Origin: an uncultured delta proteobacterium | GTDB lineage: Bacteria; Desulfobacterota; Binatia; Binatales; Binataceae | Assembly: GCA_963842085.1 (NCBI GenBank) | Contig: CAWJET010000001.1 | Span: 704,001-768,000, forward strand | Reading direction: 5' to 3' | DNA length: 64,000 nt | In this document: positions 9,266-57,551 of the stretch, in pieces | How the letters are laid out: every line of letters begins with the position of its first letter | Position numbering within the stretch: position 1 is the stretch's first letter | Position numbers and translations under genes: made by a program | Notes under the pieces: model-generated | The model's database searches: none | Seen by the model: the letters and a program-made list of their open reading frames with translations, nothing else | What the model was told of the DNA's origin: nothing

Positions 9266-9329
9266 CCGCTCCTCTAGCAGCAACCCAAACGAGAGACAGG
9301 CTCGTTCGCAGGTGCCGACGGTACACTAC

Positions 9330-9540
9330 TCGTTGCCGAAACCTCGTCATACGCGCTCTACATCCGCGTTCTGCCAGGGTGATCGTGGTGCGGTAACGAG
9401 CTGGGTGATGCCCATCGCTTCGACCCGGGCAGCAGAAGTACGAGCCATACGACGCATCGCGATCGCCGCAGCAGATACCGAGGCGCCGTGTCCCACGGGA
9501 ACGCTTCGGTCACTCGGTGCGTAAGCCAAGTTGAAGTGGG
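9330..9540 (-). mobile_element. Transposase (integrase core) fragment
   Basis: VTEAFPWDTAPRYLL and, after a frameshift, MGITQLVTAPRSPWQNADVERV. Confidence 0.8.
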
Positions 9541-41233: not shown

Positions 41234-41941
41234 TCAAACTGCGCAGACGCCGTTTTCACAGTGACCGGTGGCACCCAGACCCCGCAGTATTGAGTCCGCG
41301 AGCAGCTTTTCTTTCTGAGCACCGTTGGCAACGACTTCCCCTTGAAACGAGATTTGAGGAACCCCCCGAATGCCGGCAGATGCGGCCATACGCTCCCCTG
41401 TTTTCACTTCGCTGACGAGCGCTGGGCTATCCAGATCTTCCACGCGCGAGATCGCAGTGACGCCGAACTCACGGGCTATGCCGAGCAGAGTGGCCGGATC
41501 ACCTACGTCTTCGCCGTTTAGGAAGTAGGCTTGGAAGAGCCGTTCTGCGTCTAGATTTTGTTTATGCACGCCGTCTTTCAAGGCCGCGGCGAGCAACACA
41601 TGCCCCCTGAAGGTGTTCGGTGTACGCTTCATCAGGTCATGGCGAAATCTGATTCCGACCTCCGCTCCCGCGGCGGACACCTGTGCATCGAGGCGTTGCG
41701 ACTGTTCCCAACTCCCGAACTTTGCTGAGCGGTACAATCGCCGGTCGAGGCCCTCGACAGGCATCTCGGGGTTGAGTTGGAACGGATGCCAACGGACCTC
41801 GAGCGTTTTGCCCAAGATAGACGACGCTCTCTCCAGACGACGCTTCGCCACGAAGCACCATGGACAAATCAAATCCGAAGTCACGTCGACGACCAGGCCG
41901 TCCGCGGGCGGCGCAATTCTATCTGTAAGATTCTCAGTCAT
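41234..41941 (-). CDS. DsbA/FrnE family oxidoreductase
   Basis: SDLICPWC, PFQLNP, GVP, C-terminal CENGVC. Confidence 0.9.
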   Translation of the reverse strand: MTENLTDRIAPPADGLVVDVTSDLICPWCFVAKRRLERASSILGKTLEVRWHPFQLNPEMPVEGLDRRLYRSAKFGSWEQSQRLDAQVSAAGAEVGIRFRHDLMKRTPNTFRGHVLLAAALKDGVHKQNLDAERLFQAYFLNGEDVGDPATLLGIAREFGVTAISRVEDLDSPALVSEVKTGERMAASAGIRGVPQISFQGEVVANGAQKEKLLADSILRGLGATGHCENGVCAV

Positions 41942-42700: not shown

Positions 42701-43003
42701 ATGAGCAGGCAAGCAGCAGAAGTTGGACTGCCAGAGAGCGAATATCTGACTGTCCCTGAGATCGCGAAAATTCTTCGACGCAATCGAAAGACCGTGTATG
42801 GCTGGATCGAATCTGGTGGGATTGGGGAAGTGGACGGTCTTTTCGTCGTGCAAGGACGTTACTTGATCCACTGGCCGACATTCCGATCCAGGCAGTTCAA
42901 ACCCCGCGTGAAACTGCGCGGTCAACTGCCGGAATACTCGGAGGAATCGCAAAATGGCATGGCTGGAAACGGACAGACACGGCCGCCTGAGAATCGGCTT
43001 TAA
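42701..43003 (+). CDS. Excisionase-like HTH protein
   Basis: YLTVPEIAKILRRNRKTVYGWIESG; overlaps the integrase start. Confidence 0.8.
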   Translation: MSRQAAEVGLPESEYLTVPEIAKILRRNRKTVYGWIESGGIGEVDGLFVVQGRYLIHWPTFRSRQFKPRVKLRGQLPEYSEESQNGMAGNGQTRPPENRL

Positions 43004-44222
43004 GTATTACGACGGCCTCAAATGTCGCGAGCCGCTCGGGGTGTCGGCAAACAAGCAGACCATCGCCGAGGCCAGGCGGCTTTGCGCGACGATACAGCTT
43101 GAGCTCAAGGCGAGAACTTTCGATTATGCCAAGCGATTTCCGGACAGCGACCGGATAAAGCAGCGCGGGATCGAGACGCCAGAGAAAATCCAACCGATCA
43201 GCGTCACTGAGCTCGCCGACAGTTGGCTGCTCAGCAAGCAAGGCGAGGTGAAGAAATCGACCCACGGCTACTACAAAGAAGTCGCGGGGATCTTCATTCA
43301 GCGCGACGCAATCGGGACGAAAACGGTCTCGGAATTACGTCAGGAAGACATCGATCGCTGGCGCGTACGGGTCGACGAGAAACAAACCAAGGGCAACGAA
43401 CCGCTGAGCACGCGGCGGAAGAACATGGCGTGGGATGTCCTGAATCAAATCCTGGAGTTCGCTCGCGTCCGGAAACTGCTCAACGAAGACCTCCTGCTCG
43501 GGATGAAGCCATTTAAGGATTCCGGCCAAGCAAACGACGACGATTCCGAACTCTCGGACGAGCCGGAAGATGCCGAAGTGATGCCGTATAACGCGGATCA
43601 GATTGAAGCGATCATCGCGGCGGCGGAGGGCTGGGAACGCGCTCTTGTAACGCTCTATTTCTTTACCGGAATCCGACGCGGCGAAGCGCTCGCTCTGACT
43701 TGGGACAGGGTCTACCTCGATCGTGACCGGGCACTGATCAACCGCAGCCTCAGCGTCCGATATGGCATCACGACGCCGAAGACGAAGAGCAGCCGGCGCA
43801 TGATCCAGTACGGTCCAAGGGTTCGCGCAGAGCTGTCGAAGCAAAGGGAAAGAGTCCAGCTACGCAGCAAGTACGTCTTCCCCAATGAGAGCGGCGCTGC
43901 GCCCAATGTACGCTGGGCGACTGACGTGGTCTGGCGCCGAATTCTCACGCGAGCTGAAGTTCCGCACAGACCAATCGGGCAGTGCCGTCACAGCTTCGCG
44001 GTCCTCGCGCTGAAGCAGCACAAACCGCTCAACTGGATTCAACGGCAGATGGGTCACCGCACGCTGCAAATGTTGTTGAAACATTACTGGCGCTGGATAC
44101 CGACCGACGATCTTTCTGCGGAAGAAATGTCTTCGTTGGAGAGCGCAGCGGCGCCGTTGGCCTCAAATCATGCCCACCCTGTGCCCACCCGGCCCGAAAC
44201 CGGGACCGAAGCGGGCTCGTAA
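42954..44222 (+). CDS. int: Tyrosine integrase with Arm DNA-binding domain
   Basis: FDYAKRFP arm domain; TGIRRGE, KT, CRHSFA, MGH, HY catalytic motifs. Confidence 0.93.
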   Translation: MAWLETDRHGRLRIGFKYYDGLKCREPLGVSANKQTIAEARRLCATIQLELKARTFDYAKRFPDSDRIKQRGIETPEKIQPISVTELADSWLLSKQGEVKKSTHGYYKEVAGIFIQRDAIGTKTVSELRQEDIDRWRVRVDEKQTKGNEPLSTRRKNMAWDVLNQILEFARVRKLLNEDLLLGMKPFKDSGQANDDDSELSDEPEDAEVMPYNADQIEAIIAAAEGWERALVTLYFFTGIRRGEALALTWDRVYLDRDRALINRSLSVRYGITTPKTKSSRRMIQYGPRVRAELSKQRERVQLRSKYVFPNESGAAPNVRWATDVVWRRILTRAEVPHRPIGQCRHSFAVLALKQHKPLNWIQRQMGHRTLQMLLKHYWRWIPTDDLSAEEMSSLESAAAPLASNHAHPVPTRPETGTEAGS

Positions 44223-44232
44223 AACAATGATT
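44171..44232. promoter_or_regulatory. Candidate att arm sites plus IHF-like site
   Basis: TGCCCACCC twice (44171, 44182); AATCATTGTTTTA on the minus strand at 44220-44232, close to WATCAANNNNTTR. Confidence 0.45.
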
Positions 44233-44257
44233 CAGATCGGGAAAAACCCAATAAAAC

Positions 44258-44349
<92 letters not shown>

Positions 44350-44657
44350 GCTCAATAAAATCAAGTATCTATGCGGTATTCGCCTTAGGAGCAACCTCCC
44401 AAAGTGTCCCGGATTTTTCGAGCCGGTCGTCAGACTCATCGCCAACCTGTCCACCGAATCAGTCTCCACGTTCTTGAACTGGTACCATCTCGCTGGCCTG
44501 AACTGTTCGACGAATTCGGTTACGCGCTGGGCTAACGGAGTTTCGTCGCGGACCTTGCTTGACGTCGCGAATCGCATGGTGCTTTGCTCCTATCGAGGAA
44601 GAGGAGATCTGCATCGCCGCTCATCTGCAGTAGTCTGCTGAGCGAGAGAAAGGCGTC

Positions 44658-45458
44658 ATGGAACCAATCGCATACGTCGCGCGCCTGAACGAGTTCTATC
44701 GAAGTCAGGGATTTCCTGTGTACCAGTGGACGATCAATGAAAGCGCGCCGCTCACTCCGCTGAAAAAGTCGTTGGCTGGTTGCCGGGTGGCGATGCTCAC
44801 GTCGGGCGGAGTCTCGCGCAAGGATACGCCACCGTTCAATCCCCAGGCGCGCAACGATTTGAGACTCGACGCCGTCGACAAGGAAACCTCGCCCCAGTTC
44901 TTCGCCATCAACGACGACTACTACAATCACCGCGACGCGGACCGGGACATCAACTGCATTTTCCCGATCGAGCGACTCCGCGAGTTGCAATCCGAGGGCT
45001 TGATCGGTGAAGTCGGGCCGCATCATTACAGCGGCTTTATGGGGCGCATCTACACCCGCAGTGCGGTGGTGAACGAGGCCGCGCCGGCGCTGGCGCGGCG
45101 GCTGCGGGATGAGAGAATCGACGCGTTCGTCCTGGTGCCCGCTTGACCGCTCGATCACCAGACCGTTGGTCTGGTAGCGAGGGTGGTAGAGGAAGCAGGC
45201 ATCCCGACCGTTGTAGTCTCGACCGGCCGCGATCTGAGCGCCCAGGTTAGACCGCCGCGCACGGTTTTCGTCAATTTCCCGATGGGAAATCCGTTCGGCA
45301 AACCATTCGATAAAGGTCAGCAGCGCAAGATTCTGCTCGACGCGCTGCACGCACTTGAATCGGTGAAGACCGGCGGCGGAATTATTGATCTCCCATATGA
45401 GTGGGGCAAGGAATTCGCAATGAACCTGGGTTCCGGCTATCGCGCGAAGAGCGCGTAG
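44658..45458 (+). CDS. PrdB/GrdB-family selenoprotein (266 aa; Sec at TGA 45144-45146)
   Basis: VAMLTSGG, DINCIFP, FMG, VLVPA-U-PLDHQTVGLVAR..EEAGIPTV; two track ORFs join in frame; hairpin after the TGA. Confidence 0.88.
45157..45175 (+). promoter_or_regulatory. SECIS-like hairpin
   Basis: ACCAGACC-GTT-GGTCTGGT after a 10-nt spacer from the UGA. Confidence 0.75.
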
Positions 45459-45466
45459 GAGTTTTT

Positions 45467-45871
45467 GTGACGGTGAAGCTCAAGAAGACGCTCAGGCAAA
45501 TGCTGGCGGAAGCAAATGCGGAGATAGAGACGGTTAGTGCCGCGGACGCGATCAAGCTCAAAGGTGATTCGGACCTGGTATTCGTGGACATCCGGGATAT
45601 CCGCGAGCTTGAACGCGACGGCCGGATTCCAGGCGCGTTTCACGCACCGCGCGGGATGCTCGAATTCTGGGTCGATCCCGAGAGTCCGTACCACAAGGAG
45701 ATCTTCGCCTCGGGCAAAAAATTCATCTTCTTCTGAGCGGGCGGAGGCAGATCTGCGCTGGCAGCGCAGACCCTTCAGCGCATGGGACTCGCACCGGTCT
45801 GTCACATGGGCGGCGGCTTTACGGCATGGAAAGCGGCTGGCGGACCGGTGGAGGGTGGAAAAGTCTCGTGA
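45467..45871 (+). CDS. Rhodanese-like selenoprotein (134 aa; Sec at TGA 45734-45736)
   Basis: FVDIRD..E..GRIPGA.HAPRGMLEFWVDP...FIFF-U-AGGGRSALAAQTLQRMG...GGFTAWK; AGGAG RBS and GTG start. Confidence 0.88.
45752..45770 (+). promoter_or_regulatory. SECIS-like hairpin
   Basis: TCTGCGCT-GGC-AGCGCAGA after a 15-nt spacer from the UGA; extendable by GGAGG/CCTTC. Confidence 0.7.
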
Positions 45872-45947
45872 TGGATAAGGGCTTCGCTTACTGTCTCTCG
45901 GGCTCGAATTCGAGAAAATACTGGTAGGTTGATTTGCGCGCCCGCTA

Positions 45948-46592
45948 TCATGCGCGGCGCGCGACGAGCGCGTAATGATATTTGAACAAGCGCTCGCCTT
46001 CGATCCGCAAACCCATACGCTCCATCCGATCACGCGCTTCGGCAGCGGTGTAAACATGATCCCTTGGAGGACCCACCGGCCGTTCGACGCCGGCGTTCCA
46101 GTCAACTACGAGCACGGTTCCGGCCGGCTTGAGCAGGGCAACCATCGCACGCAGCGCGTCATCGCCGAGCTCATGCAGGACGTTGAGCGCGAGCACGCGA
46201 TCGGCCGTTCCATTCAGCTTCTTAATTTCATCGGTATGAAGCGCTTTAAGATTTGAGAGCTTTTGTGCCGCAGGCTTCGCCCGCAACAGCTCGAGCATCT
46301 GCTGCTGTTCGTCGAGTGCAGTCACCTCCAGGTCGGGCCGCGATCGCGCGAGCTCGATCGCGTAGGTTCCGATGCCCGTGCCGAAATCCACGACACGGCT
46401 GCCGGTCGGCGCCGCCAGCATCTCGAAGATCTCATCGGGCGGCAGGTACCCGAAGCGAAATGGGTCGTCGAGCAGCGCCGCCCGGGCCGGGTCGAAGCGC
46501 TCGGGCTGACGGGCGCCATGCCGATCGTCATCGCCATGTGCGCCGTGGCGATGGCTGCCGTGATGGTGCGAGTCGTGCTGATTTTTTTCCAT
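45948..46592 (-). CDS. Class I SAM methyltransferase with His-rich N-terminus
   Basis: VDFGTGIG, NVLHEL, LKPAG, GPP; N-terminus HDSHHHGSHRHGAH. Confidence 0.85.
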   Translation of the reverse strand: MEKNQHDSHHHGSHRHGAHGDDDRHGARQPERFDPARAALLDDPFRFGYLPPDEIFEMLAAPTGSRVVDFGTGIGTYAIELARSRPDLEVTALDEQQQMLELLRAKPAAQKLSNLKALHTDEIKKLNGTADRVLALNVLHELGDDALRAMVALLKPAGTVLVVDWNAGVERPVGPPRDHVYTAAEARDRMERMGLRIEGERLFKYHYALVARRA

Positions 46593-46728
46593 GAGGAATC
46601 CCTCCATGCGGGCTGAGCGCAACTTGACGCGCGGCTTGATTTCATCGCGACTTCTCCCAACATCGGAGGCAGCACGCGTGGATGATGATTGCTGCCATCA
46701 GAATGCACCGATCGCCGCCACGCGTCGA

Positions 46729-47280
46729 TCAGATTGAGCCTCCATCTATTCGCTCAATGCGACCGCGGCGAACATGCCGCACCAGTGGCGGCGACGTTCT
46801 GCCCAGCCGTTGCAAAATTCTTGGCTCGCTAATTTTTTCGGCGCAGAAGCCGCGAACGTATTGAACCAGCGCCACGATCTGGTCGTAGCCCAACGTTCCG
46901 CCAAAGGCCGGCATTCCGGCCGGAAACCCCGCCGCCGCGGCGCCATCCTTGATAACCAGGAATATGGTCGCGTCGGACATCATCGACATCCAGCCACAAT
47001 CCGTAAAACTACGGAGATGAACTTGCAATTGCGGAGCCTCGGGGCCGTCGCCCTGACCCGAACGGCCGTGGCAGTGTGCACATTGGCTCTGGTAGAGGGT
47101 CTGCGCCGTGAGAGGATGCGCCGCATCAGGATTGAGATCGGCGGCTCTGGCGCCGGCGGTTAGGCTCAACAACGGAAGCGCCGCGACCAAGGTGCGGATG
47201 TACCCTGGTCTATGAGCTTTGGGCGGCGCTTTAGCTCGACCTGGTGCGAAGCTCAGTGTATTTGCAGCGTTCTCAGCCAC
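46729..47280 (-). CDS. Monoheme cytochrome c
   Basis: CAHCHG..G.GDGP, GMPAF; start uncertain. Confidence 0.85.
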   Translation of the reverse strand: MAENAANTLSFAPGRAKAPPKAHRPGYIRTLVAALPLLSLTAGARAADLNPDAAHPLTAQTLYQSQCAHCHGRSGQGDGPEAPQLQVHLRSFTDCGWMSMMSDATIFLVIKDGAAAAGFPAGMPAFGGTLGYDQIVALVQYVRGFCAEKISEPRILQRLGRTSPPLVRHVRRGRIERIDGGSI

Positions 47281-47921
47281 GCCACAAGATCTTCGAGTTG
47301 CTTACGATCGAGGACCCCGGAGAACGCAGGCATTGTGCGGCGACCGCGCATCACAATCTCTTGAAAGTCATTGAACCTATAGAGGATCGGCTGCTGAACG
47401 AGGTTCGGTCCTTGTTTACCGCGCGCGTCAGCTCCGTGGCATTCAGCGCAGGCGTTAGTGAAGACGCCCGCGCCGGCGCGTGCGTCTCCATGGAATCTGA
47501 CGGGGTCCGCCAGCGGCTCGACGGAATCCAACAGGGCAACGCTGGGCGATTCAGGCGCAGCCATCGGCACGGCTCCGAGCGGAAACTGGCTGGACAGATA
47601 ATCAGCCAGCGACTTTTCCTGATCGGCAGGGAGCGGTGCTCCCCAGTTCCGCATTTTTTTGACCTCTGCTTGCCACTGCTCGGGTGTCAGTCTCTGCTGG
47701 ATCATCATTCCCCGGTCATGGCAGATCTCGCAGTGATCTCGCATTTCAGCCGCTTCGGCCCGCTGCGCTGCGCTCCCGGCCGTTCCGGCCAGCACACGGG
47801 TCGAGAGCAGAAGCAACGCTGGGACTACGAGCCACATTCGCCGCGGAAGGCTCGCCCACTGGAATGAACGATGGTTCCCAGCTGCACGTTCTCGCATCGC
47901 GATTCGAATGAGCGCTGCCAT
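47253..47921 (-). CDS. Diheme cytochrome c, sulfite oxidase partner
   Basis: CEICH...QQRLT..QW...KM..WGA and CAECH...MPAF; TGATG coupling to the upstream gene. Confidence 0.85.
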   Translation of the reverse strand: MAALIRIAMRERAAGNHRSFQWASLPRRMWLVVPALLLLSTRVLAGTAGSAAQRAEAAEMRDHCEICHDRGMMIQQRLTPEQWQAEVKKMRNWGAPLPADQEKSLADYLSSQFPLGAVPMAAPESPSVALLDSVEPLADPVRFHGDARAGAGVFTNACAECHGADARGKQGPNLVQQPILYRFNDFQEIVMRGRRTMPAFSGVLDRKQLEDLVAWLRTLQIH

Positions 47922-49096
47922 CAGGCGATCCTGCAATGAACTCGATCGATGCCGTTCCACAAATAGCCGCCATGATTCCAAGGCGTCGTTTCCGGCTGCA
48001 CTCTGCCTGAGGAATCGGTGGCGCGCGCGGCGATTGTATACGCTCCTTGCGTCGCCGCTTTCCACCGATAACGCCACAGTTGCCATGCGCCCTCAGATTC
48101 CTTGCCCTCAAGTTCGGCGCGAGCCCACGAGCGGCCGCCATCCAGCGACACTTCGACGTTGACCACGTGTCCCATGCCGGTAAAAGCTACTCCCGAGACC
48201 AGGTTGTCGCCGGGCGGCATGACCGAACCTTCCAACGGCCTTGCAATCAACGATTTGACCGGGTTGATGGCGACCGGAACTTCAGGCGCGGGTGCGATGC
48301 CTTTTTGCGGAACTGGTTGCTGCGGCATCCTGTACGCAGTCTGCATGTAGAAGCCCTCGGCCTCATGCTCCTGAAAGTCGATTCGGCGCAACCATTTGTA
48401 CCAGTGATCGCCGGCCCAGCCCGGTACCACCATGCGGAGCGGGCCACCATGCAACATCGGCAGCGGCTCGCCGTTCATTTCGAAGGCAAGCAGCGTGCCC
48501 GGATCGAGTGCGCGCTCGATGGGAATGCTGCGGGTAAACGAAGGAGTTGTGGGCATGGGAGCGGAGTCATAGCCGCGCATCTGCATGTGACCGGCGCCGG
48601 GTTTGATGCCTATGCTCTTCACTACGTCGCGCAGGCGGACCCCTGTCCACAGAGCGTTGCCAACCGCGCCGCGCTGCCACTGGACGCCCGGCACTGACGG
48701 ATGAAAAAAGGCGCGCCCGTTGCCTGCGCATTGAAGCGTTGCCGGCAAGCGCACGATTTCGAACTTGCGCAGGTCCTCGAGGGTCAGGCTGCGAGAGCTA
48801 TCGACGAGGCCGCCAATCTCGAGTCTCCATTGTTCTTGAATGATAGCGGGTGGGCCAAAATGACTTCGCACGAAAAACACCGCATTGGGAGTAATCGAGG
48901 AAGCCAGATACTCGACCGGCGTCTCCAAGTCCTGCGGCCGGGAAAGCCGAACAATCAGTGAGTCGTGCTCATGCACCATTTCAGCAGCGCGACCGATTGC
49001 CGGCATGCCGCTCACCAACGCCAGAGCACCCACACTCCGCGAAAGATGCCTGAGAAATCGGCGTCGCGACCACAACTCAGTGGATAATCGGCTCAC
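47921..49096 (-). CDS. Sulfite oxidase family molybdoenzyme (Tat-exported)
   Basis: SRRRFLR, FFVRSH, LQCAGNGR, HGGPLR, KWL, dimerisation domain. Confidence 0.93.
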   Translation of the reverse strand: MSRLSTELWSRRRFLRHLSRSVGALALVSGMPAIGRAAEMVHEHDSLIVRLSRPQDLETPVEYLASSITPNAVFFVRSHFGPPAIIQEQWRLEIGGLVDSSRSLTLEDLRKFEIVRLPATLQCAGNGRAFFHPSVPGVQWQRGAVGNALWTGVRLRDVVKSIGIKPGAGHMQMRGYDSAPMPTTPSFTRSIPIERALDPGTLLAFEMNGEPLPMLHGGPLRMVVPGWAGDHWYKWLRRIDFQEHEAEGFYMQTAYRMPQQPVPQKGIAPAPEVPVAINPVKSLIARPLEGSVMPPGDNLVSGVAFTGMGHVVNVEVSLDGGRSWARAELEGKESEGAWQLWRYRWKAATQGAYTIAARATDSSGRVQPETTPWNHGGYLWNGIDRVHCRIA

Positions 49097-49208
49097 TTCA
49101 CACCTCCGCCAATATAAAGGATATGTGGCAGGTTTTCATCGCGAATGATCAGGAGCCATGAGTGCCAATGGTCACAACCAACGACCTCGCGCACTGCTTC
49201 CGCTTCGG

Positions 49209-50255
49209 CTAACCAATCCATCCGAGCAGTATGGCGCCAAGCGTGGCGGTTCCCATCAGCAGCCAAAGAACGAAGCCCTGGATTAGGGGGCGCCGCCCAA
49301 CCATCTGAAGGGCGCTGCGGCTCAGCCCGGAGCCGATCAGAAACAAGGTGACCACCAACGAACGTTGCGCGCCGAGGAATATCGTGTGGCCAGCGGGTTT
49401 CAGCGCAGGTACCCATGTCACCAATGCTGCGGCGGCGATAAATCCCAGGATGAACCACGGCCGCCTGGCCTTGCCCGCAGGCGCGTCTGGGTTTCCGCGG
49501 TTCCAAACCATTCCGACGGCGAGGGTCACGGGCACTATCCAAAGCGCTCGGGTAAGTTTGATGGTGGTAGCGATCTCAAGCGCGCGTGCGCCGTATTGCA
49601 TCGCCGCTCCGACTACTGAGCTCGTATCGTGAATGGCAAGCGCGCTCCACACTCCAAACTGTGCCTGACTCAAACCGAAATAGTGCCCGATCCACGGAAA
49701 GATGAACAAGGCGACCGCGTTGAGGAAGAACACTGTCGCCAGCGCCACGGAAACCTCATGACTTTTGGCTCGGATCGCGGGAGCGACCGCCGCGATGGCG
49801 CTGCCGCCGCATATTGCCGTACCTACGGTTACCAGCAGCGAGGTGTCCCGTTCGGTCCGAATCAATCGGCCCAAAACCAGACCAAGGGTCATCGTGAGTG
49901 TGATGCCGATGACCGTGTAAAAGAAGCCATGGACACCGGCGTGCCCTACTTCAACGAGATTCATGCCGGCCCCCAGACCGATGACCGAGATTTGCAGCAA
50001 GGGAGTGATCAGCCGCGCGGTGGTAAAGGGATAACCATTGCCCAAAGTGAGGGCCACGCAGATGCCCAGCATCAGCGCGATGCCGGGCGAGACGAACGGC
50101 AACAGCGTCGCGCATGCCGCGATTGGAAACGCGATGCGGGCAGCGACCGTCGCGGGATTGGCGCGGCTGAACTCATGGCGCCAGCCAGCCGGCGCCGCTG
50201 GGACGAAATCCTCCTTCGGTTTCGTGGCCTCCGACGTGCGCATCGCGCCGGTCAT
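49209..50255 (-). CDS. yeiH: YeiH-like putative sulfate/sulfite exporter
   Basis: GTAICGGSAIAA, AIHDTSSVVGA, TTIKLTRALW; ATGA coupling to ArsR. Confidence 0.9.
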   Translation of the reverse strand: MTGAMRTSEATKPKEDFVPAAPAGWRHEFSRANPATVAARIAFPIAACATLLPFVSPGIALMLGICVALTLGNGYPFTTARLITPLLQISVIGLGAGMNLVEVGHAGVHGFFYTVIGITLTMTLGLVLGRLIRTERDTSLLVTVGTAICGGSAIAAVAPAIRAKSHEVSVALATVFFLNAVALFIFPWIGHYFGLSQAQFGVWSALAIHDTSSVVGAAMQYGARALEIATTIKLTRALWIVPVTLAVGMVWNRGNPDAPAGKARRPWFILGFIAAAALVTWVPALKPAGHTIFLGAQRSLVVTLFLIGSGLSRSALQMVGRRPLIQGFVLWLLMGTATLGAILLGWIG

Positions 50256-50620
50256 GCTCGCACGCGAGCGGGGAGCGCTCCGACCTGCGCTTCGAGCCGG
50301 TCGCGCAGTCTCGCGCAGACCATTTCGCACAACTCGAAGACCATTTCGTCGGCGATCGAATAGAAGGCGCTGTTGCCTTCGGGTCTTCGTCTCACCAGTC
50401 CGGAATCCTGCAGAATCCGCAGGTGCTTGCTGACGTTGGGCTGCGTCGAGCCGACGCTTTGGGCGAGCGCGGAAACCGAGCGCTCGCCCTGCTCGAGTTC
50501 GTGCAGGATGCGCAGGCGCAGCGGTTCGCCCATCGCCCTGAAGCGTGCTGCCACCATCTCCAGCGCTTGCGGGGTCAAGGCGCGCCGCGACTTTGGCCTG
50601 AAGCCGTTTCTTGCCTTCAT
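50252..50620 (-). CDS. ArsR/SmtB family regulator
   Basis: FRAMGEPLRLRIL, QPNVSKHL, FELCEMVC. Confidence 0.92.
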   Translation of the reverse strand: MKARNGFRPKSRRALTPQALEMVAARFRAMGEPLRLRILHELEQGERSVSALAQSVGSTQPNVSKHLRILQDSGLVRRRPEGNSAFYSIADEMVFELCEMVCARLRDRLEAQVGALPARVRA

Positions 50621-50699
50621 GAGTAAATAGTTATATATCGACCTGGTCTCGAGTCAAACGCGGCGCCGCCGGTTTCATTCCGGCGCAAGGAAAAGCCCC

Positions 50700-51737
50700 A
50701 TGTTCTTTCGAGAATTGAACCGTGGAAAGTGCAAAACCTACATGCTCGGATGCGAGCGCACGCGGCGCGCCGCGGTGGTGGACCCGCTCAAAGAAAACAC
50801 CGCACGCTACATCGCGATCGCCGCGTATCGTGGCTTCCGGCTGGATTATGCGATCGACACGCACACCCACGCCGACCATCGCAGCGGCACCTGGGACCTC
50901 GCCGGATTAACCGACGCGAAGGTCGTAATGGATCGCCACGCCCCCGCGCCTAACGTCGACGTCCACGTTTCAAACAGCGATGTTCTCGAGGTCGGCGACC
51001 TGCGCGTGAAGTTCATGTTCACGCCCGGGCACACGCCCGACGGAATCAGCCTCTACGTCGACGGGCACGTGCTGACCGGCGACACCTTGTTGATTGGCGG
51101 CACCGGGCGAGCGGACTTTCCCGGTGGCGACGCCGGAAAACAATACGACGCGATCACCGGCCTGCTGTTCAAACTGCCGGACGACACGCTCGTGTTTCCC
51201 GCGCACGACTATCGCGGTAATCGGTGCTCGACGATCGGAAAGGAGAAAGCCACTAATCCGCGGGTTGCCGGGCATACACGCGACGAATACATCAGCATCA
51301 TGAATAATCTCGGCCTGCCGCTGCCCGACAAGATTCAGGAGGCACTGCAGGCCAATCAAACCGCGATCGAAGACGACTCCCTCAAATTCCCCGATGTCGC
51401 GCAGCTGAGCAGCGTTCATCAGGCAAGCGTTCCCGAATTGCGGGACCGCCTCGCCGGCGGGAACCCGCCGATCGTGCTCGACGTACGCGAACCAGACGAA
51501 TACCACGATGAACTTGGGCACATTCCGGGCAGTAGATCGATCCCGCTGAGAGCTTTGCCGAGTGAAGCGGGCAAACTCGAGAACCTGAAACACAGCGACA
51601 TCGTAGTCGTGTGCCGCGCCGGCGTACGCAGCAGCACCGCCGCCGCGATCCTCACCGCACTCGGTTTCGAACACGTGACCAACCTCAAGGGCGGGATGCT
51701 CGAATGGAACGAGGCCGGCCTGCCGGTGGAGCGCTAA
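50700..51737 (+). CDS. Persulfide dioxygenase (MBL fold)-rhodanese fusion
   Basis: THTHADH, TPGHT, TGD, GRADF, PAHDY, NPR; C-terminal LDVRE...VCRAGVRS. Confidence 0.9.
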   Translation: MFFRELNRGKCKTYMLGCERTRRAAVVDPLKENTARYIAIAAYRGFRLDYAIDTHTHADHRSGTWDLAGLTDAKVVMDRHAPAPNVDVHVSNSDVLEVGDLRVKFMFTPGHTPDGISLYVDGHVLTGDTLLIGGTGRADFPGGDAGKQYDAITGLLFKLPDDTLVFPAHDYRGNRCSTIGKEKATNPRVAGHTRDEYISIMNNLGLPLPDKIQEALQANQTAIEDDSLKFPDVAQLSSVHQASVPELRDRLAGGNPPIVLDVREPDEYHDELGHIPGSRSIPLRALPSEAGKLENLKHSDIVVVCRAGVRSSTAAAILTALGFEHVTNLKGGMLEWNEAGLPVER

Positions 51738-51744
51738 TCGCGCC

Positions 51745-51843
51745 ATGCACGATTTCACGCCGGTCGCATCGCTCATCGGCGGTATTCTGATCTGCTTAAC
51801 CGGGGGGACGCTGCGGTCCGCGTCGGACGCGCTGGTCACGTGA
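51745..51843 (+). pseudogene. YeeE/YedE relic
   Basis: MHDFTPVASLIGGILI matches typical YeeE/YedE N-termini; stops after 32 aa. Confidence 0.6.
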
Positions 51844-52082
51844 TTAAAGACTGAGAAGCATCGTGGTGGCTGATACTTCGGGTTCGAACCTCGAATGCGC
51901 TTCGTCATTCAGCCGCGAATTCGCGCGTTCGTAACAATCGAATCATCATGTCGTAACCGACGCTGGCTAGTTTTCCGCCGGCATGAAGCCTGTACTGGGC
52001 TTTTGTACGCAGGTCCAGAGCGAACACGGGTTTCGTAAGTGCTCTTGGAGCAGCAGTCGATTCCGGGGAGTACCCAGGGAGG

Positions 52083-53813
52083 GTGATGATGAGACGAACG
52101 ATCGGAATAATTGCGCTGTCGATGCTTGGTGCGGCGTTGATGCTCTGCGCCGTCGCGATCACACCGATGCCGGCGTGGAGCCAGGACGGGCGCGCGCTCA
52201 TGCTGTACACCGATCCCGCCAGCGGCCAGGTGTTCACCAAGCGATGCAAACATTGCGTCAGGCTCGGCGAATACGTCCCTGCCGGATCGACCGAAGAGAT
52301 CGAGCGCAAGGTCGAGGCGAAGACTCAGCAGCAACTCGAGCAGGAACGCGCTGCGATGCAGTCCGACATGGCGCAAAGGGCGGCCCAGCAGCAGCAGTGG
52401 AACGCCGAGATGGCCAAGCAGGTCTCCGAGATCCAGCCGTTCGCACAGGAGTTCGGCGATCGCTGGTACAAGAAGATCTCGCTCGGCACGCTGATCTACG
52501 GCGATTATGGCTACTTCAGCCACACCGGATTCGGCCCGCAGTTCCTGACTCAGCAGAACTGGCCCGGTCCCGGCAACAACAGCTTCAACTCGTTCAATAT
52601 CACGCGCGCATACATTGATTTCAAATTCACGCCTGTGGACGACATCTCAGCACGCGTGACGCCCAACATTTACGCGGCGGTTAACACCGGGACCACCTGC
52701 ACGACGTCCTCGACGTCAACGTCAACCGGCGGAATAAAAACTACTACGAAGACTACATGCACCGCGAGCAGCGGCGACAAGGTCGGTGCCAACAGCGCAT
52801 ACGGCCAGAGCCAGGATCAAGACCTCTCCTACCGCTTGAAGTACGCGTATATCGACTACAATACCTTCTTCAAAAAGGTTTTGAAGTTCGAACCGATGAG
52901 CGACGACAAGTTCACCTTCGGCCAGCAGCAGAATCCGCTGGTGGACTGGGAGGAGAACCTGTGGGGCTTCCGCTACACCGCCTTGACGCCGTGGAACTAT
53001 CTGAGCTTGAGTTCGTCGCAGGTCGGCGTTTCGATGAAGGGGCCGATCAAAGTTAACGAGACGCAGTACGCCGATTACGATTTCGGCGTGTTCGACGATG
53101 CCAGCTTCCACGCTATCGAGCAGAGCGCTTGGAAGCAGGTTATGGGTCGCGTAACGATTAATCCTTTAGGCGCCCACTCACGCTACGATAGCCTTGGTCT
53201 GACCGGCTTCTACGACTACGGCTACTCGAACAAATGCACGCCCGACGTGAGTTCTATTCCAGGAAGCAACACCACATGCGGGCATATGGCGCGCGCATCG
53301 GCGCTCGTGCACTACACCGCCGAGAGCTGGGGCGTTATCGGCGAGTGGGATTACGGCCACAATGCGTTCAGCAGCGGCAACCTCTTTTCGGGCAGCGGGC
53401 CTTCCGACGCGGTCGGTATCACCAGTTCCGGCCCCAGCAGTTTTACGGCCTGGAACAAGATGGTCGGCAATATTCTCAACAACGGTCAGGCGATACAGAT
53501 GGGCGCGGATTTGCTCGGCCACTGGGACATCCCGCACACCCCGTTCACCCTCTTCGGCCTGGTCGAGTGGTTCCAGCCCAACACGCGTATCGATAAAGAC
53601 CCGCTCGACTTCACCCGCTACGATTTGGGAGTGCAGTGGCTGATTAACAAATATTTCCGGGTGGCGTTCGATTCACAGGCCGAGCAGTACTATCACAGTC
53701 AGTTCACGTACCCGGCAACGGCGGTGCCGGGCCAGGCGAAGACGCCCGCGGTGCCGTACGCGGTGCCGCGCGATACGCACGCATTCTTCCTGAACCTGGA
53801 ATTCAGGTACTAG
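52083..53813 (+). CDS. Putative outer-membrane beta-barrel (porin-like) protein
   Basis: Signal peptide, coiled coil, FNITRAY, RLKYAY, C-terminal LNLEFRY. Confidence 0.7.
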   Translation: MMMRRTIGIIALSMLGAALMLCAVAITPMPAWSQDGRALMLYTDPASGQVFTKRCKHCVRLGEYVPAGSTEEIERKVEAKTQQQLEQERAAMQSDMAQRAAQQQQWNAEMAKQVSEIQPFAQEFGDRWYKKISLGTLIYGDYGYFSHTGFGPQFLTQQNWPGPGNNSFNSFNITRAYIDFKFTPVDDISARVTPNIYAAVNTGTTCTTSSTSTSTGGIKTTTKTTCTASSGDKVGANSAYGQSQDQDLSYRLKYAYIDYNTFFKKVLKFEPMSDDKFTFGQQQNPLVDWEENLWGFRYTALTPWNYLSLSSSQVGVSMKGPIKVNETQYADYDFGVFDDASFHAIEQSAWKQVMGRVTINPLGAHSRYDSLGLTGFYDYGYSNKCTPDVSSIPGSNTTCGHMARASALVHYTAESWGVIGEWDYGHNAFSSGNLFSGSGPSDAVGITSSGPSSFTAWNKMVGNILNNGQAIQMGADLLGHWDIPHTPFTLFGLVEWFQPNTRIDKDPLDFTRYDLGVQWLINKYFRVAFDSQAEQYYHSQFTYPATAVPGQAKTPAVPYAVPRDTHAFFLNLEFRY

Positions 53814-54422: not shown

Positions 54423-57400
54423 GTGCCTGGTTTCTCATTGCGCAACCCGCATTCCGTAATCGTGGGCGCGCTGCTGACGATCATTCTGGGCGTCGCGGCA
54501 TTTCTGAGCATGCCCGTCGACGTCTTCCCCAAGCTCGACATCCCGGTCGCGGTGGTCGCCACGTTCTATCCGGGGATGCCGCCGCTCGACATCGAGGCGG
54601 ACATCACGACCCGCTTCGAGCGGTTCTTCACGCTCGGCAGCGACATCGAACACATGGAATCGCGCTCACTGCCGGGAGTCAGCATCATCAAGGTCTTCTT
54701 CCAGCCAGGCGTAGATTTGAGCGCCGCGACAGCTTCGCTGGGCAACCTCGCGATGGCCGATTTGCGCCATTTGCCGCCGGGCACGCTGCCGCCGCTCATC
54801 CTGAAATCCGGCGCATCATCGTTGCCCGTCACGCTGGTGACCGTCTCAGGCGCGGGATTCAGCGAGGCGCAACTCCGCGACCAGGCGCAGTACAACATCC
54901 GCAACTGGATTGCGACCGTGCGCGGCACCTCGGTTCCTCCGCCGTTCGGCGGCAAGTACCGGCAGATCATGGCGTACGTCAATCGCGACGCCCTGCAGGC
55001 GCGCGGGCTCACCCTGATGGACGTCGTCCATTCACTAAACGACGCCAACCTCATCATTCCGGCGGGTGACGCGAAGATCGGCTCGACTGACTACTTCGTT
55101 TACAGTAACAGCATGATCGAGAACTCAGCCGACATTAACCAGGTGCCGGTGAAGGTCGGGGCCGGTGAAGCTCCCGTATTCGTGGGCGACGTTGGACACG
55201 CCGAGGACGCGGCACAGATTCAGCAGAACATCGTGCGCATCAACGGACAGCGCTCGGTGTACATCCCGGTCATGAAGCAGGGCCACGCCAACACGATCGC
55301 GGTGGTCGATGGCGTCGACCGGGTGATCACACGAATCGCCGGTCTGCCGGCCGGGATGAAAGTCAAAGCGATCTTCGGGCAGGACGCATACGTGCGCGCG
55401 GCGATCGAGAGCCTCGAGCACGAAGCGGCCTCGGGCGCGGTCCTTGCCTCGCTGATGATCCTGATTTTCCTCGGCAGCTTCCGCTCGACGGTTGCGATTT
55501 TCCTGTCGATCCCGCTTTCGATTCTGGCCGGCGCGTTCGGCCTGCGCATGAGCGGCGCGAGCATCAACGTGATGACGCTGGGCGGCTTCGCGCTCGCAAT
55601 CGGCCGCTTGGTGGACGACTCGACGGTCGTGCTCGAAAACATCAACCGCCATCTGGCCGAGGGCAAGACTCCGGTCGACGCCGCCCGCGACGGCGCCAAC
55701 GAAGTAGCGCTGGCGGTGCTCGCCTCGACGATCACGACCATCATCGTGTTCTCGCCGGTGATGTTTCTGTTCGGCGTAGCCAAGTCGCTGTTCAGCGCGC
55801 TGTCGCTGGCGGTGGTTCTATCGATGCTGGCGTCGTACGTGGTCGCGATGACGGTGATCCCGGTTTATTGCGCGCATTTCCTGACCGCGGAGGCGGGTCG
55901 AGAGGCGGAGGAAGGCGCAGGTCGCGGTTTTATGGCCGCGTTCATCCGCAGTTACGACCGCTTCGCCGAGCGTTACGAGCGCCTGCTCGATCGGGTGCTC
56001 AATCACAAAGGTGCGGTGGTGGGGGCTGCGTCGATTCTGTTCCTCGCGAGCCTCGCCGCGTTTCCTCTGCTCGGGACAGAACTGTTTCCCAGGACCGACG
56101 CCGGCCAATTTGTCATCCAGTTCCGCGCGCCGCTGGGAACGCGGATCGAGCTCACCGAGCAACTGGCCGAACGCCTGGAAAACACGATTCGCGCAGTGAT
56201 ACCGCCGGCTGAACTCTCGACGGTGGTTTCCAATCTCGGATTGGCGACGGGATTTTCGTCGATCTACTCGTCCAACGCGGCGAGCGATTCGGGGTTCGTG
56301 ATGGTGGCGCTCAAGCCCGACCATCGCGTCTCGACCTGGGACTACGTGGCCAGGCTCAAACAGATATTGCCCGCGCGCATCCCGGAAATTCGCACATTCT
56401 TTTCGTCCGGAAGCATCATCGACTCGGTGCTTAATTTCGGGCTCGCGGCGCCGATCGACATACAGGTTAGCGGGCAACACTACGCCCAGCTCTTCGACCT
56501 GTCGCGCAAAGTCGATGCGCGCGTGAAGGGCTTGCCGCAGGTCGCCGGGACATTCATCCCCGAGGAATCCAACTATCCCACCCTCAGGATCAACGTTGAC
56601 CGGGTGAAGGCCGCGCGCCTCGGCCTCAGCCAGCGCGACGTCGTCACCAACGTCATCACCGCGCTCACCTCCAATCAAATGATCGCACCGTCGATCTGGA
56701 TCGATCCGAAGACGGGCAACGACTACTTCCTGACCGCGCAGTACGCCGAAGATAATATCAATTCCATCGACACGCTGCGCGACATCCCGGTGCGAAGCAG
56801 CGACGGCGACCACTCCCGCGCCGACGCGCTGATGCTGCGCAACGTCGCCACCATAACCCGCGAGCGGCATCCCGCCGAAGCGGACCATTACAACATTCAA
56901 CGCGTCGTCGACGTGCTGGTTGCGCCAAGGACCGATGACATGGGTGGCACGCTGACGGCGGTCCAGAGGGCGCTGTCCCATCTCGACCTGCCGCCGGGAA
57001 CCGCCATTGCCTACCGCGGCTCGGTTGAGGCGATGCAGCAATCATTCGCGAGCTTCGGTTACGGACTCGCAATGGCGGTGGTGCTGCTCTACCTCGTGAT
57101 GGTGGCGCAGTTCCGCTCGTTCCTCGACCCGTTCATCATAATGTTCGCCGTTCCGATGGGGCTGATCGGCGTCGTGTGGACGCTTTACCTCACCGGCACG
57201 ACGCTCAACATCGAATCGTTCATGGGGATCATCGCGATGGTTGGGATCGTGGTATCCAACGCGATCCTGCTGGTGGACTTCGCCAACCGGCGCTTCCGCG
57301 GCGGGCAGGAACTGCGCCTGGCAATCGTCGAGTCGGCGAAAATCCGGATGCGCCCGATTCTGATGACGACGCTGGCCACGGTGGTGGGCCTGATGCCGAT

Positions 57401-57551
57401 GGCGCTCAAGCTGGGTGCCGGCTCGGAAGCCTCCGCCCCGCTCGCGCGCGCGGCCGCGGGCGGACTGGCAGTCTCCACGCTGCTGACGCTGTTCCTGGTT
57501 CCCGCGCTCTACGAAATATTCTACGGTCGGCAGCAGCAGGTATCCCGATGA
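54423..57551 (+). CDS. RND efflux permease
   Basis: VDDSTVVLEN, NAILLVDF, RMRPILMT; 1042 aa. Confidence 0.96.
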   Translation: MPGFSLRNPHSVIVGALLTIILGVAAFLSMPVDVFPKLDIPVAVVATFYPGMPPLDIEADITTRFERFFTLGSDIEHMESRSLPGVSIIKVFFQPGVDLSAATASLGNLAMADLRHLPPGTLPPLILKSGASSLPVTLVTVSGAGFSEAQLRDQAQYNIRNWIATVRGTSVPPPFGGKYRQIMAYVNRDALQARGLTLMDVVHSLNDANLIIPAGDAKIGSTDYFVYSNSMIENSADINQVPVKVGAGEAPVFVGDVGHAEDAAQIQQNIVRINGQRSVYIPVMKQGHANTIAVVDGVDRVITRIAGLPAGMKVKAIFGQDAYVRAAIESLEHEAASGAVLASLMILIFLGSFRSTVAIFLSIPLSILAGAFGLRMSGASINVMTLGGFALAIGRLVDDSTVVLENINRHLAEGKTPVDAARDGANEVALAVLASTITTIIVFSPVMFLFGVAKSLFSALSLAVVLSMLASYVVAMTVIPVYCAHFLTAEAGREAEEGAGRGFMAAFIRSYDRFAERYERLLDRVLNHKGAVVGAASILFLASLAAFPLLGTELFPRTDAGQFVIQFRAPLGTRIELTEQLAERLENTIRAVIPPAELSTVVSNLGLATGFSSIYSSNAASDSGFVMVALKPDHRVSTWDYVARLKQILPARIPEIRTFFSSGSIIDSVLNFGLAAPIDIQVSGQHYAQLFDLSRKVDARVKGLPQVAGTFIPEESNYPTLRINVDRVKAARLGLSQRDVVTNVITALTSNQMIAPSIWIDPKTGNDYFLTAQYAEDNINSIDTLRDIPVRSSDGDHSRADALMLRNVATITRERHPAEADHYNIQRVVDVLVAPRTDDMGGTLTAVQRALSHLDLPPGTAIAYRGSVEAMQQSFASFGYGLAMAVVLLYLVMVAQFRSFLDPFIIMFAVPMGLIGVVWTLYLTGTTLNIESFMGIIAMVGIVVSNAILLVDFANRRFRGGQELRLAIVESAKIRMRPILMTTLATVVGLMPMALKLGAGSEASAPLARAAAGGLAVSTLLTLFLVPALYEIFYGRQQQVSR

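Follow-up and report, generated by a model that had tools for sequence, protein, structure and literature searches.

In the D-proline and glycine reductases of amino-acid-fermenting anaerobes, the selenocysteine (Sec, U) of the PrdB- or GrdB-type protein acts as a nucleophile, and the adduct is then reductively resolved; the redox motif of PrdB is given as UxxC (PMC13188914). A stand-alone family named proline reductase PrdB, mostly with Sec and from aerobic bacteria, is known from ocean metagenomes (PMC1088965, PMC2398784), where it made up 42 of 310 Sargasso Sea sequences (PMC1088965) and 235 in the Global Ocean Sampling data (PMC2398784). We have analyzed a 64,000-nt stretch of a genome of the family Binataceae (GCA_963842085.1, contig CAWJET010000001.1, positions 704,001-768,000 of the forward strand; hereafter the window, with G000 its genome of origin), in which a gene for a PrdB-like selenoprotein is directly followed by one for a single-domain rhodanese selenoprotein.

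Operons of two selenoprotein genes have been named before, namely grdA-grdB, prdB-prdC, frhA-frhD-hdrA, Prx/SelW-like, Prx-like/AhpD-like, SAO and Tso (PMC13188914), and the operon section of that article does not contain a PrdB-like/rhodanese pair. The grdA-grdB operons likewise join a large B-type selenoprotein to a small second one, but in the window the small partner is a rhodanese and not GrdA. Both families have long been known as predicted selenoproteins (PMC1088965, PMC2398784, PMC9312934, PMC13188914), and what appears to be new here is their pairing and the link to a methyltransferase detailed below. Full-text literature searches, which did not extend to supplements, returned no description of either, and no publication on Binatia with selenocysteine was found in this way. 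Among the matches listed, the terms PrdB-like and GrdB-like led to publications on Synergistota only, and no title concerned the pair when a selenoprotein-rhodanese-methyltransferase neighbourhood was sought.

The PrdB-like gene (44658..45458, plus strand) encodes 266 residues, with Sec163 (TGA 45144-45146) in the context VPA-U-PLDHQT. In Pfam and NCBIfam profile searches with curated cut-offs, which were used for the window proteins throughout, the product matches the Pfam family GRDB (PF07355) with 34.5 bits, above the cut-off of 22, and its residues 29-250 match the PrdB model TIGR04483 with 148 bits, below the cut-off of 300. It shares Sec and near full-length homology with PrdB and GrdB, but besides the low score it differs from them in its U-P-L-D motif in place of UxxC, in its origin from an aerobic-type soil lineage and in its rhodanese and methyltransferase neighbours. 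For comparison we selected, from 136 confirmed relatives, the best 80 loci, 81 with the window, and an aspartate at +3 of the catalytic residue, rather than the cysteine of UxxC, is found in 81 of 81. Judged by sequence, the protein is thus a stand-alone member of a distinct subfamily that lacks the UxxC cysteine. In the alignment Cys100 is invariant and Cys42 nearly so, and both are candidates for internal resolving thiols of Sec163. The ocean family probably belongs to the same broad group, and metagenome-assembled genomes (MAGs) of marine Gamma- and Alphaproteobacteria are among our loci; its motif is however UxxC (PMC1088965, PMC2398784), as opposed to UPLD in the window subfamily, while a second paralog in G000 has UPVC.

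Identity with D-proline reductase or glycine reductase was considered and rejected, in view of the sub-threshold TIGR04483 score, the UPLD motif and the lack of any partner gene found. Searches for PrdA/GrdE (PF09338) and GrdA (PF04723) gave no match in the genome, which is 100% complete, but had no positive control (PF09338 matched 0 of 14 control genomes); nor was a gene of the PrdA/GrdE type (PF09338) found among the neighbours in the window. An AlphaFold model of the PrdB-like protein is confident (mean predicted local distance difference test score 93.7). A Foldseek search with it gave no match in the Protein Data Bank (PDB) at E <=0.001, and VIA-align retrieved generic Rossmann-like alpha/beta matches only (best Z 8.5 at a root mean square deviation of 3.5 over 135 aligned residues), so that the structure model provides no functional lead. 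A PDB sequence search likewise returned no match (best E 0.56). The second PrdB-like selenoprotein gene of G000 (C1:1776204-1776929; L168:6205-6930) is 43-44% identical and adjoins MAPEG, redoxin and nitroreductase genes. Further paralogs with 38-47% identity, all with one TGA, are common in Binataceae, and at least one PrdB-like match occurs in 100 of 121 genomes of the family. A MAG contig labelled as Hydrogenedentota (L036) holds two PrdB-like Sec genes, at 754-801 and 1953-2000 and thus about 1.2 kb apart, one with a UPVC and the other with a UPLD motif.

The rhodanese gene (45467..45871, plus strand) starts with GTG and encodes 134 residues with Sec90 (TGA 45734-45736) in FF-U-AGGGRS, its true stop being a second TGA at 45869-45871. 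The match to PF00581 is clear (66.2 bits against a cut-off of 22.2), and the catalytic loop U-A-G-G-G-R fits the six-residue form C/U-x-x-G-x-R, which is the sulfurtransferase form of rhodaneses. No NCBIfam selenoprotein model fits, rhodanese_LYCAU (NF041203) remaining at 35.4 bits with a cut-off of 115. The protein is a clear ortholog of RPA3614 from Rhodopseudomonas palustris (PDB 2HHG, deposited as a hypothetical protein; E 1e-49 over 125 residues), which however has an active-site cysteine, and it shares with the UxxG rhodanese-related selenoproteins (PMC13188914) a single domain and a catalytic Sec followed by xxG. A low-depth contig from a soil run (X5 record 17, covering window positions 45653-45744) departs after 45744 into a Cys-type rhodanese loop, GGMRS; the same soils would therefore also harbour a relative, at strain or species level, that has the Cys form. 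In alpha- and betaproteobacteria, Cys orthologs of the rhodanese immediately follow a DsbA-like (PF01323) gene within clusters for thiolase, SDR and enoyl-CoA hydratase, SDR being a short-chain dehydrogenase/reductase (L119, L134, L137, L142, L144, L145, L151, L157, L159, L161, L165 and others).

That both in-frame TGAs are read as Sec is indicated by the relatives. At the PrdB-like site, TGA is found in 69 and TGC or TGT in 11 of the 80 loci, in all 80 followed by PLDHQT. At the rhodanese site, nine of the ten loci with a rhodanese behind the PrdB-like gene have TGA and one has TGT, and among 69 orthologs in genomes of the family the codon is TGA in 21 and Cys in the remainder. A loop rule for the bacterial selenocysteine insertion sequence (SECIS) derives from E. 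coli fdhF. Behind the first TGA lies a SECIS-like hairpin (45147..45187, plus strand) with an apical 8-bp helix of 45157-45164 with 45168-45175 and a GUU loop. The helix has the form CACCAGACC-GUN-GGUCUGGU; in 68 distinct Sec sequences 98.7% of its cells are paired, and G22 and U23 of the loop are the same in 70 of 70. One G-C pair is replaced by a compensatory A-U pair in six sequences; the covariation is modest, as four of the eight pairs never vary. The Cys forms have an altered loop and a weaker fold, with a mean energy of -17.4 kcal/mol for nine TGC and -16.4 for two TGT sequences versus -20.6 for 70 TGA sequences. The hairpin behind the second TGA (45752..45770, plus strand) consists of a 7-bp helix and the loop UGGCA. 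This helix is complete in 15 of 15 TGA entries, which represent 13 distinct loci since two genomes were sampled two times. Of the 75 Cys entries one retains it, namely L027, where a Sec-type sequence still surrounds a TGT.

The genome itself encodes selA, selB, selD with an in-frame TGA and tRNA-Sec. Moreover, the stretch is present in seven soil-metagenome runs from two studies, and contigs from three runs of the second study, which is probably not the one that the genome came from, span 44796-45755, and with it both TGAs, with zero differences. The notion that the TGAs are nonsense mutations or assembly errors in broken genes has in its favor the in-frame stops themselves and no more. It is contradicted by the comparative codon and hairpin data, the identical independent contigs and the complete Sec machinery, and its probability is negligible. 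As evidenced by the TGA/Cys alternation, the Sec-tied hairpins, the machinery and the contigs, we take both to be genuine bacterial selenoprotein genes, with products predicted to be cytoplasmic, in line with a preliminary description of the stretch that had held chance nonsense mutation to be unlikely. Its account of two coupled genes, one for a Sec-PrdB-like protein and one for a Sec-rhodanese, is borne out as well, in gene content and coordinates, by the spacer of 8 nt and by the conservation of a co-directional pair. With regard to the machinery, selD is directly beside selB at C1:2099530-2100754 (loci L002 and L083), and tRNA-Sec is located at C1:2126874-2126969, about 26 kb away.

The two genes lie on the same strand, a ribosome-binding site (AGGAG) overlies the stop codon of the first, and positions 44658-45871 are by all appearance a co-transcribed two-gene operon. 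In the ten other pair loci the rhodanese is also downstream on the same strand, with spacers of 11-136 nt in 10 of 10. A survey of 121 Binataceae genomes, G000 included, found the PrdB-like type of the window, defined by at least 70% identity, in 28 genomes; 27 of these have one TGA, and G099 has Cys instead. An ortholog of the rhodanese is present in 69 genomes, among them 26 of the 28 with the PrdB-like type versus 43 of the 93 without. Its Sec form shows the same preference, with 16 of 26 versus 5 of 43. Twelve of the 28 have the two genes side by side on the same strand with the rhodanese downstream, ten of these pairs being Sec/Sec, one Cys/Cys (G099) and one Sec/Cys (G097). The counts include two unpublished genomes, G049 with an adjacent Sec/Sec pair and G064 without the rhodanese; if both are left out, adjacency is 11 of 26 and the rhodanese is present in 25 of 26. 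Translated similarity between the window and a locus of the same genus (L003), where the proteins are 90% identical, is confined to 44635-45916. As it stops at the two genes, the pair behaves as a self-contained cassette that is found in varied genomic contexts across Binataceae.

A shared transcript need not mean a shared pathway, and the position beside a sulfur locus could be a rearrangement accident near a tRNA/integrase hotspot. The flanks indeed differ in every genome compared, an integrase and a tRNA-Ser gene are located just upstream, the rhodanese is widespread without a PrdB-like gene (at least 533 relatives, 80 of which form our rhodanese locus set), and 70 of 80 loci of the PrdB-like family lack this rhodanese. 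Against an accident, order, strand and short spacer are kept in the 12 genomes at 70-90% protein identity while the surroundings change, the rhodanese accompanies the PrdB-like type almost throughout, and the Cys/Cys pair has stayed together as well. We therefore give this explanation little chance. Beyond Binataceae, this rhodanese was not found beside a PrdB-like gene in either 80-locus set; a different, Cys-type rhodanese is located just upstream of the PrdB-like gene in L032, L035, L040 and L042, from other lineages.

Rhodaneses with a six-residue loop carry persulfide sulfur on the catalytic residue and can also bind and carry selenium, and betaine reductase follows a direct-displacement logic. 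Our favored, yet tentative, interpretation, which we rate somewhat short of an even chance, is that the pair forms a selenol relay through which sulfane sulfur or selenium is passed on, with loose ties to a methyltransferase and to the oxidation of persulfide. The two proteins would act together on a chalcogen, most likely sulfane sulfur and possibly selenium, which the rhodanese would carry as a Se-S(e) adduct and which the PrdB-like enzyme would either produce or reductively resolve. The cassette would be part of a loose network with an S-adenosylmethionine (SAM) methyltransferase and an ArsR-YeiH-SorAB/PDO-YeeE locus, PDO denoting persulfide dioxygenase, in which persulfide would be converted to sulfite by PDO, exported by YeiH and oxidized in the periplasm by a SorA-like enzyme with cytochromes c.

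The most regular neighbour of the PrdB-like enzyme, a SAM methyltransferase, had not been weighed in the preliminary description. Within 5 kb, SAM methyltransferases are the most frequent neighbours, present at 31 of 81 loci (class I enzymes at 19, O-methyltransferases at 12), according to a home-made clustering with rough gene calling and a codon-position GC filter that may miss or split genes. At 24 of 81 loci the methyltransferase is directly adjacent or just behind the rhodanese. By flanking position, methyltransferases make up 21 of 157 next neighbours and 7 of 145 second ones, versus 4 of 366 in the third to sixth positions that serve as an internal background. At least six arrangements occur: upstream and co-directional in Binataceae, behind the rhodanese, divergent at 8 nt in Acidimicrobiia, as convergent winged-helix fusions in Gammaproteobacteria, downstream in delta-type MAGs, and as an O-methyltransferase with an SDR in marine Gammaproteobacteria.

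This neighbourhood raises the possibility that the PrdB-like enzyme, like Grd and Prd systems, reductively cleaves a small organic substrate at a carbon-heteroatom bond. The substrate, perhaps methylated and of the onium type, would be a product or a reactant of the methyltransferase and unrelated to sulfur oxidation, and the Binataceae rhodanese would act as an external selenol or thiol that resolves the Sec adduct of the enzyme, in place of the lost UxxC cysteine. The recurrent adjacency across several phyla and arrangements agrees with such a role, as do the near full-length similarity to PrdB, the aspartate at +3 in every sequence and the catabolic enzymes that neighbour the gene elsewhere. 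In turn, no PrdA/GrdE- or GrdA-type gene was found in the genome, with the reservation on controls made above, and the methyltransferases belong to several unrelated subtypes. The aspartate is moreover family-wide and present even where no rhodanese is near, and the rhodanese can therefore not be the general resolving partner. We consider this explanation the main alternative, if on the unlikely side.

Four of the five class I methyltransferases tested have arsenite-methyltransferase-type domains as their best NCBIfam matches, which are partial, with 49-78 bits versus cut-offs of 263-510. No NCBIfam cut-off is attained by any of the methyltransferases (40-78 bits versus 263-575 overall), and these matches probably reflect the shared SAM fold only. 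Taken at face value, they would fit a selenium module, in which a perselenide on the rhodanese would hold Se(0), the PrdB-like protein would reduce the Se-S bond and the methyltransferase would volatilize or detoxify selenide. Sec in both proteins and the tendency of the Sec rhodanese to go with the PrdB-like gene point the same way. However, the methyltransferase scores are far below threshold, Cys/Cys and Sec/Cys pairs exist and 11 of 80 PrdB-like genes encode Cys, and neither a selenium uptake gene nor a linkage to selD is found at the locus; a dedicated selenium function is thus very unlikely in our view.

The relay interpretation extends to the sulfur locus of the window, in which the genes converging on the pair are on the minus strand. 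Next to the rhodanese gene is a class I SAM methyltransferase with a His-rich N-terminus (45948..46622), followed by a monoheme cytochrome c with one CxxCH (46729..47280), a diheme cytochrome c with a SorB-like first part (47253..48086), a SorA-like molybdopterin sulfite dehydrogenase with a twin-arginine leader (47921..49096), a membrane protein of the YeiH family (PF03601; 49209..50330) and a regulator of the ArsR/SmtB family (50252..50620). The true start of the diheme cytochrome is probably further in, as the listed open reading frame (ORF) overlaps the upstream gene by 166 nt, and the same applies to YeiH, whose ORF start overlaps the ArsR gene. Divergent from the regulator, on the plus strand, are a PDO-type metallo-beta-lactamase fused to a Cys rhodanese domain (50700..51737) and a YeeE/YedE-like remnant of 32 codons (51745..51843), in the place of which L005, L091, L171 and L172 have an intact gene in two halves. 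Over its first 19 residues the remnant shares 74% identity with the N-terminus encoded by the intact gene in L005.

This domain set is that of ArsR/BigR-controlled PDO loci combined with SorAB, namely ArsR, PDO-rhodanese, YeiH, a molybdenum enzyme and c-type cytochromes, with YeeE halves in the relatives, but the window proteins miss all equivalog models of the BigR, SorA and Blh systems and YeeE is reduced to the remnant. The regulator reaches 47 of the required 155 bits with the BigR model NF040642 and satisfies the general ArsR/SmtB model (88 vs 55); the SorA-like protein scores 305 bits with NF052245, the cut-off being 600, and contains molybdenum-binding and dimerization Pfam domains at 194 and 55 bits; the PDO fusion matches Blh (NF040641) with 101 vs 625 bits over residues 87-220 only and has Lactamase_B and Rhodanese domains. 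The labels BigR and SorA were consequently rejected as equivalog assignments for these neighbours. The locus itself is of an ordinary, known kind: PDO and SorAB families take persulfide to sulfite and on to sulfate, with YeiH as the proposed exporter. The PDO of the window is 77-79% identical to that of other genera (e.g. G052, G116 and G032) and merely 62-63% to that of its own genus (G107, G092, G100 and G112), while G110 has both types; this pattern suggests two PDO lineages or a transfer of the sulfur locus.

PDO orthologs are present in 96 of the 121 genomes, and in 4 of the 69 rhodanese genomes (G000, G048, G078 and G061), or 3 of the 21 with a Sec rhodanese, one lies within 10 kb of the rhodanese. 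In G078 (L091) a Sec rhodanese is near PDO with no PrdB-like gene adjacent, and in G061 a Cys rhodanese precedes PDO on the same strand at a distance of 79 nt. These four neighbourhoods in at least three arrangements are a minority, yet would seem to exceed what two randomly chosen genes would show. A second tie is the His-rich methyltransferase, whose ortholog is found in 39 of 121 genomes: in G044 (L028) it stands behind the pair with 80% identity, in G000 and G068 it converges on the Sec rhodanese, and in G000, G110 and G118 it is located in or beside the PDO locus, so that by position it may bridge the two. In G068, a minus-strand operon of ArsR, a small rhodanese-domain gene and the methyltransferase (L170, i.e. 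G068:C6:324000-340000, at about 8090-9399) is convergent on the Sec rhodanese; no PrdB-like gene was found near it.

A number of observations weigh against the relay interpretation and its tie to sulfur oxidation. PDO is within 10 kb in merely 2 of the 12 genomes with an adjacent pair; on one contig it is 1.69 Mb away from a 90% identical pair in G107, of the same genus, and 1.66 Mb in G069, and in the remaining eight pair genomes it is on another contig. Among the other pair loci whose 8-kb flanks are complete, PDO is seen in L005 (G048) only. Among PrdB-like loci from many phyla, PDO, sulfite oxidase or YeiH lie within 8 kb at 1 of 80, and outside Binataceae the neighbours, which include methyltransferases, F420/LLM oxidoreductases, acyl-CoA enzymes and amidohydrolases, seem to carry no plain sulfur signature. 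For 16 of 28 genomes, the PrdB-like gene lacks the adjacent rhodanese, and the Cys orthologs of the rhodanese are for the most part located in acyl-CoA gene clusters, next to a DsbA-like gene (12 of 80 loci). As related genomes are not independent, the co-occurrence counts are descriptive and overstated. The link between the pair and the sulfur locus would thus be facultative rather than obligatory, and the two happen to abut in G000.

The preliminary description had correctly named the neighbours, from ArsR, YeiH and sulfite oxidase to the cytochromes, the methyltransferase and the divergent PDO-rhodanese, all recovered in the Pfam and NCBIfam searches, and its YeeE relic proved to be one. 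Its proposal that the pair feeds this oxidation route holds in part: the rhodanese recurs beside PDO and the methyltransferase provides a bridge, but as a general rule the proposal finds no support, given the few pairs with PDO nearby. The genome survey it had called for supports the association of the two selenoproteins with each other and not that of the PrdB-like gene with PDO, sulfite oxidase and YeiH.

A bolder proposal is that the UPLD PrdB-like protein, the rhodanese and the SAM methyltransferase form a Sec-dependent pathway that moves sulfane sulfur or selenium between a carrier, a reductase and a methyl acceptor. This is distinctly unlikely on the present data, and we rate no higher the example of persulfide being converted to methanethiol-type volatiles instead of being oxidized by PDO. 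If true, it would assign a function to stand-alone PrdB, which since 2005 has counted among the most abundant selenoproteins of aerobic ocean and soil bacteria. Three handles on that protein are at any rate provided, namely a dedicated partner in the Sec rhodanese, a SAM methyltransferase link that crosses phyla, and natural Cys/Cys pairs that can be expressed without selenocysteine machinery.

Upstream of the pair, an Xis-like ORF (42701-43003), a tyrosine integrase with an Arm DNA-binding domain (42954-44222) and, directly before the pair, a tRNA-Ser(GCU) gene on the minus strand (44258-44349) together look like an integration hotspot, and no repeat of the tRNA-Ser end of at least 13 nt, which could mark an island border, was found in the window. 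Upstream of 44658, translated comparison shows no conservation even with L003, and no operator shared between this region and the ArsR-PDO spacer was seen by eye. A promoter and terminator scan of 44200-46800 gave counts not above those of shuffled sequence, an Rfam scan of 44000-52200 matched the tRNA alone, and no RNA dataset containing the stretch was listed among 14 runs. A DsbA-like gene is located at 41234-41941. The YeeE remnant, whose place is taken in relatives by intact YeeE halves, is followed by an ORF of 576 residues (52083-53813) without a Pfam or NCBIfam match; with its signal-peptide-like start, a Thr/Ser-rich stretch and a C-terminal aromatic residue it may encode an outer-membrane protein. 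Further downstream of the sulfur locus follows the gene for a large AcrB-type RND (resistance-nodulation-division) efflux pump (54423-57551), and a similar RND pump is found in L007 after the pair, a methyltransferase and an amidohydrolase.

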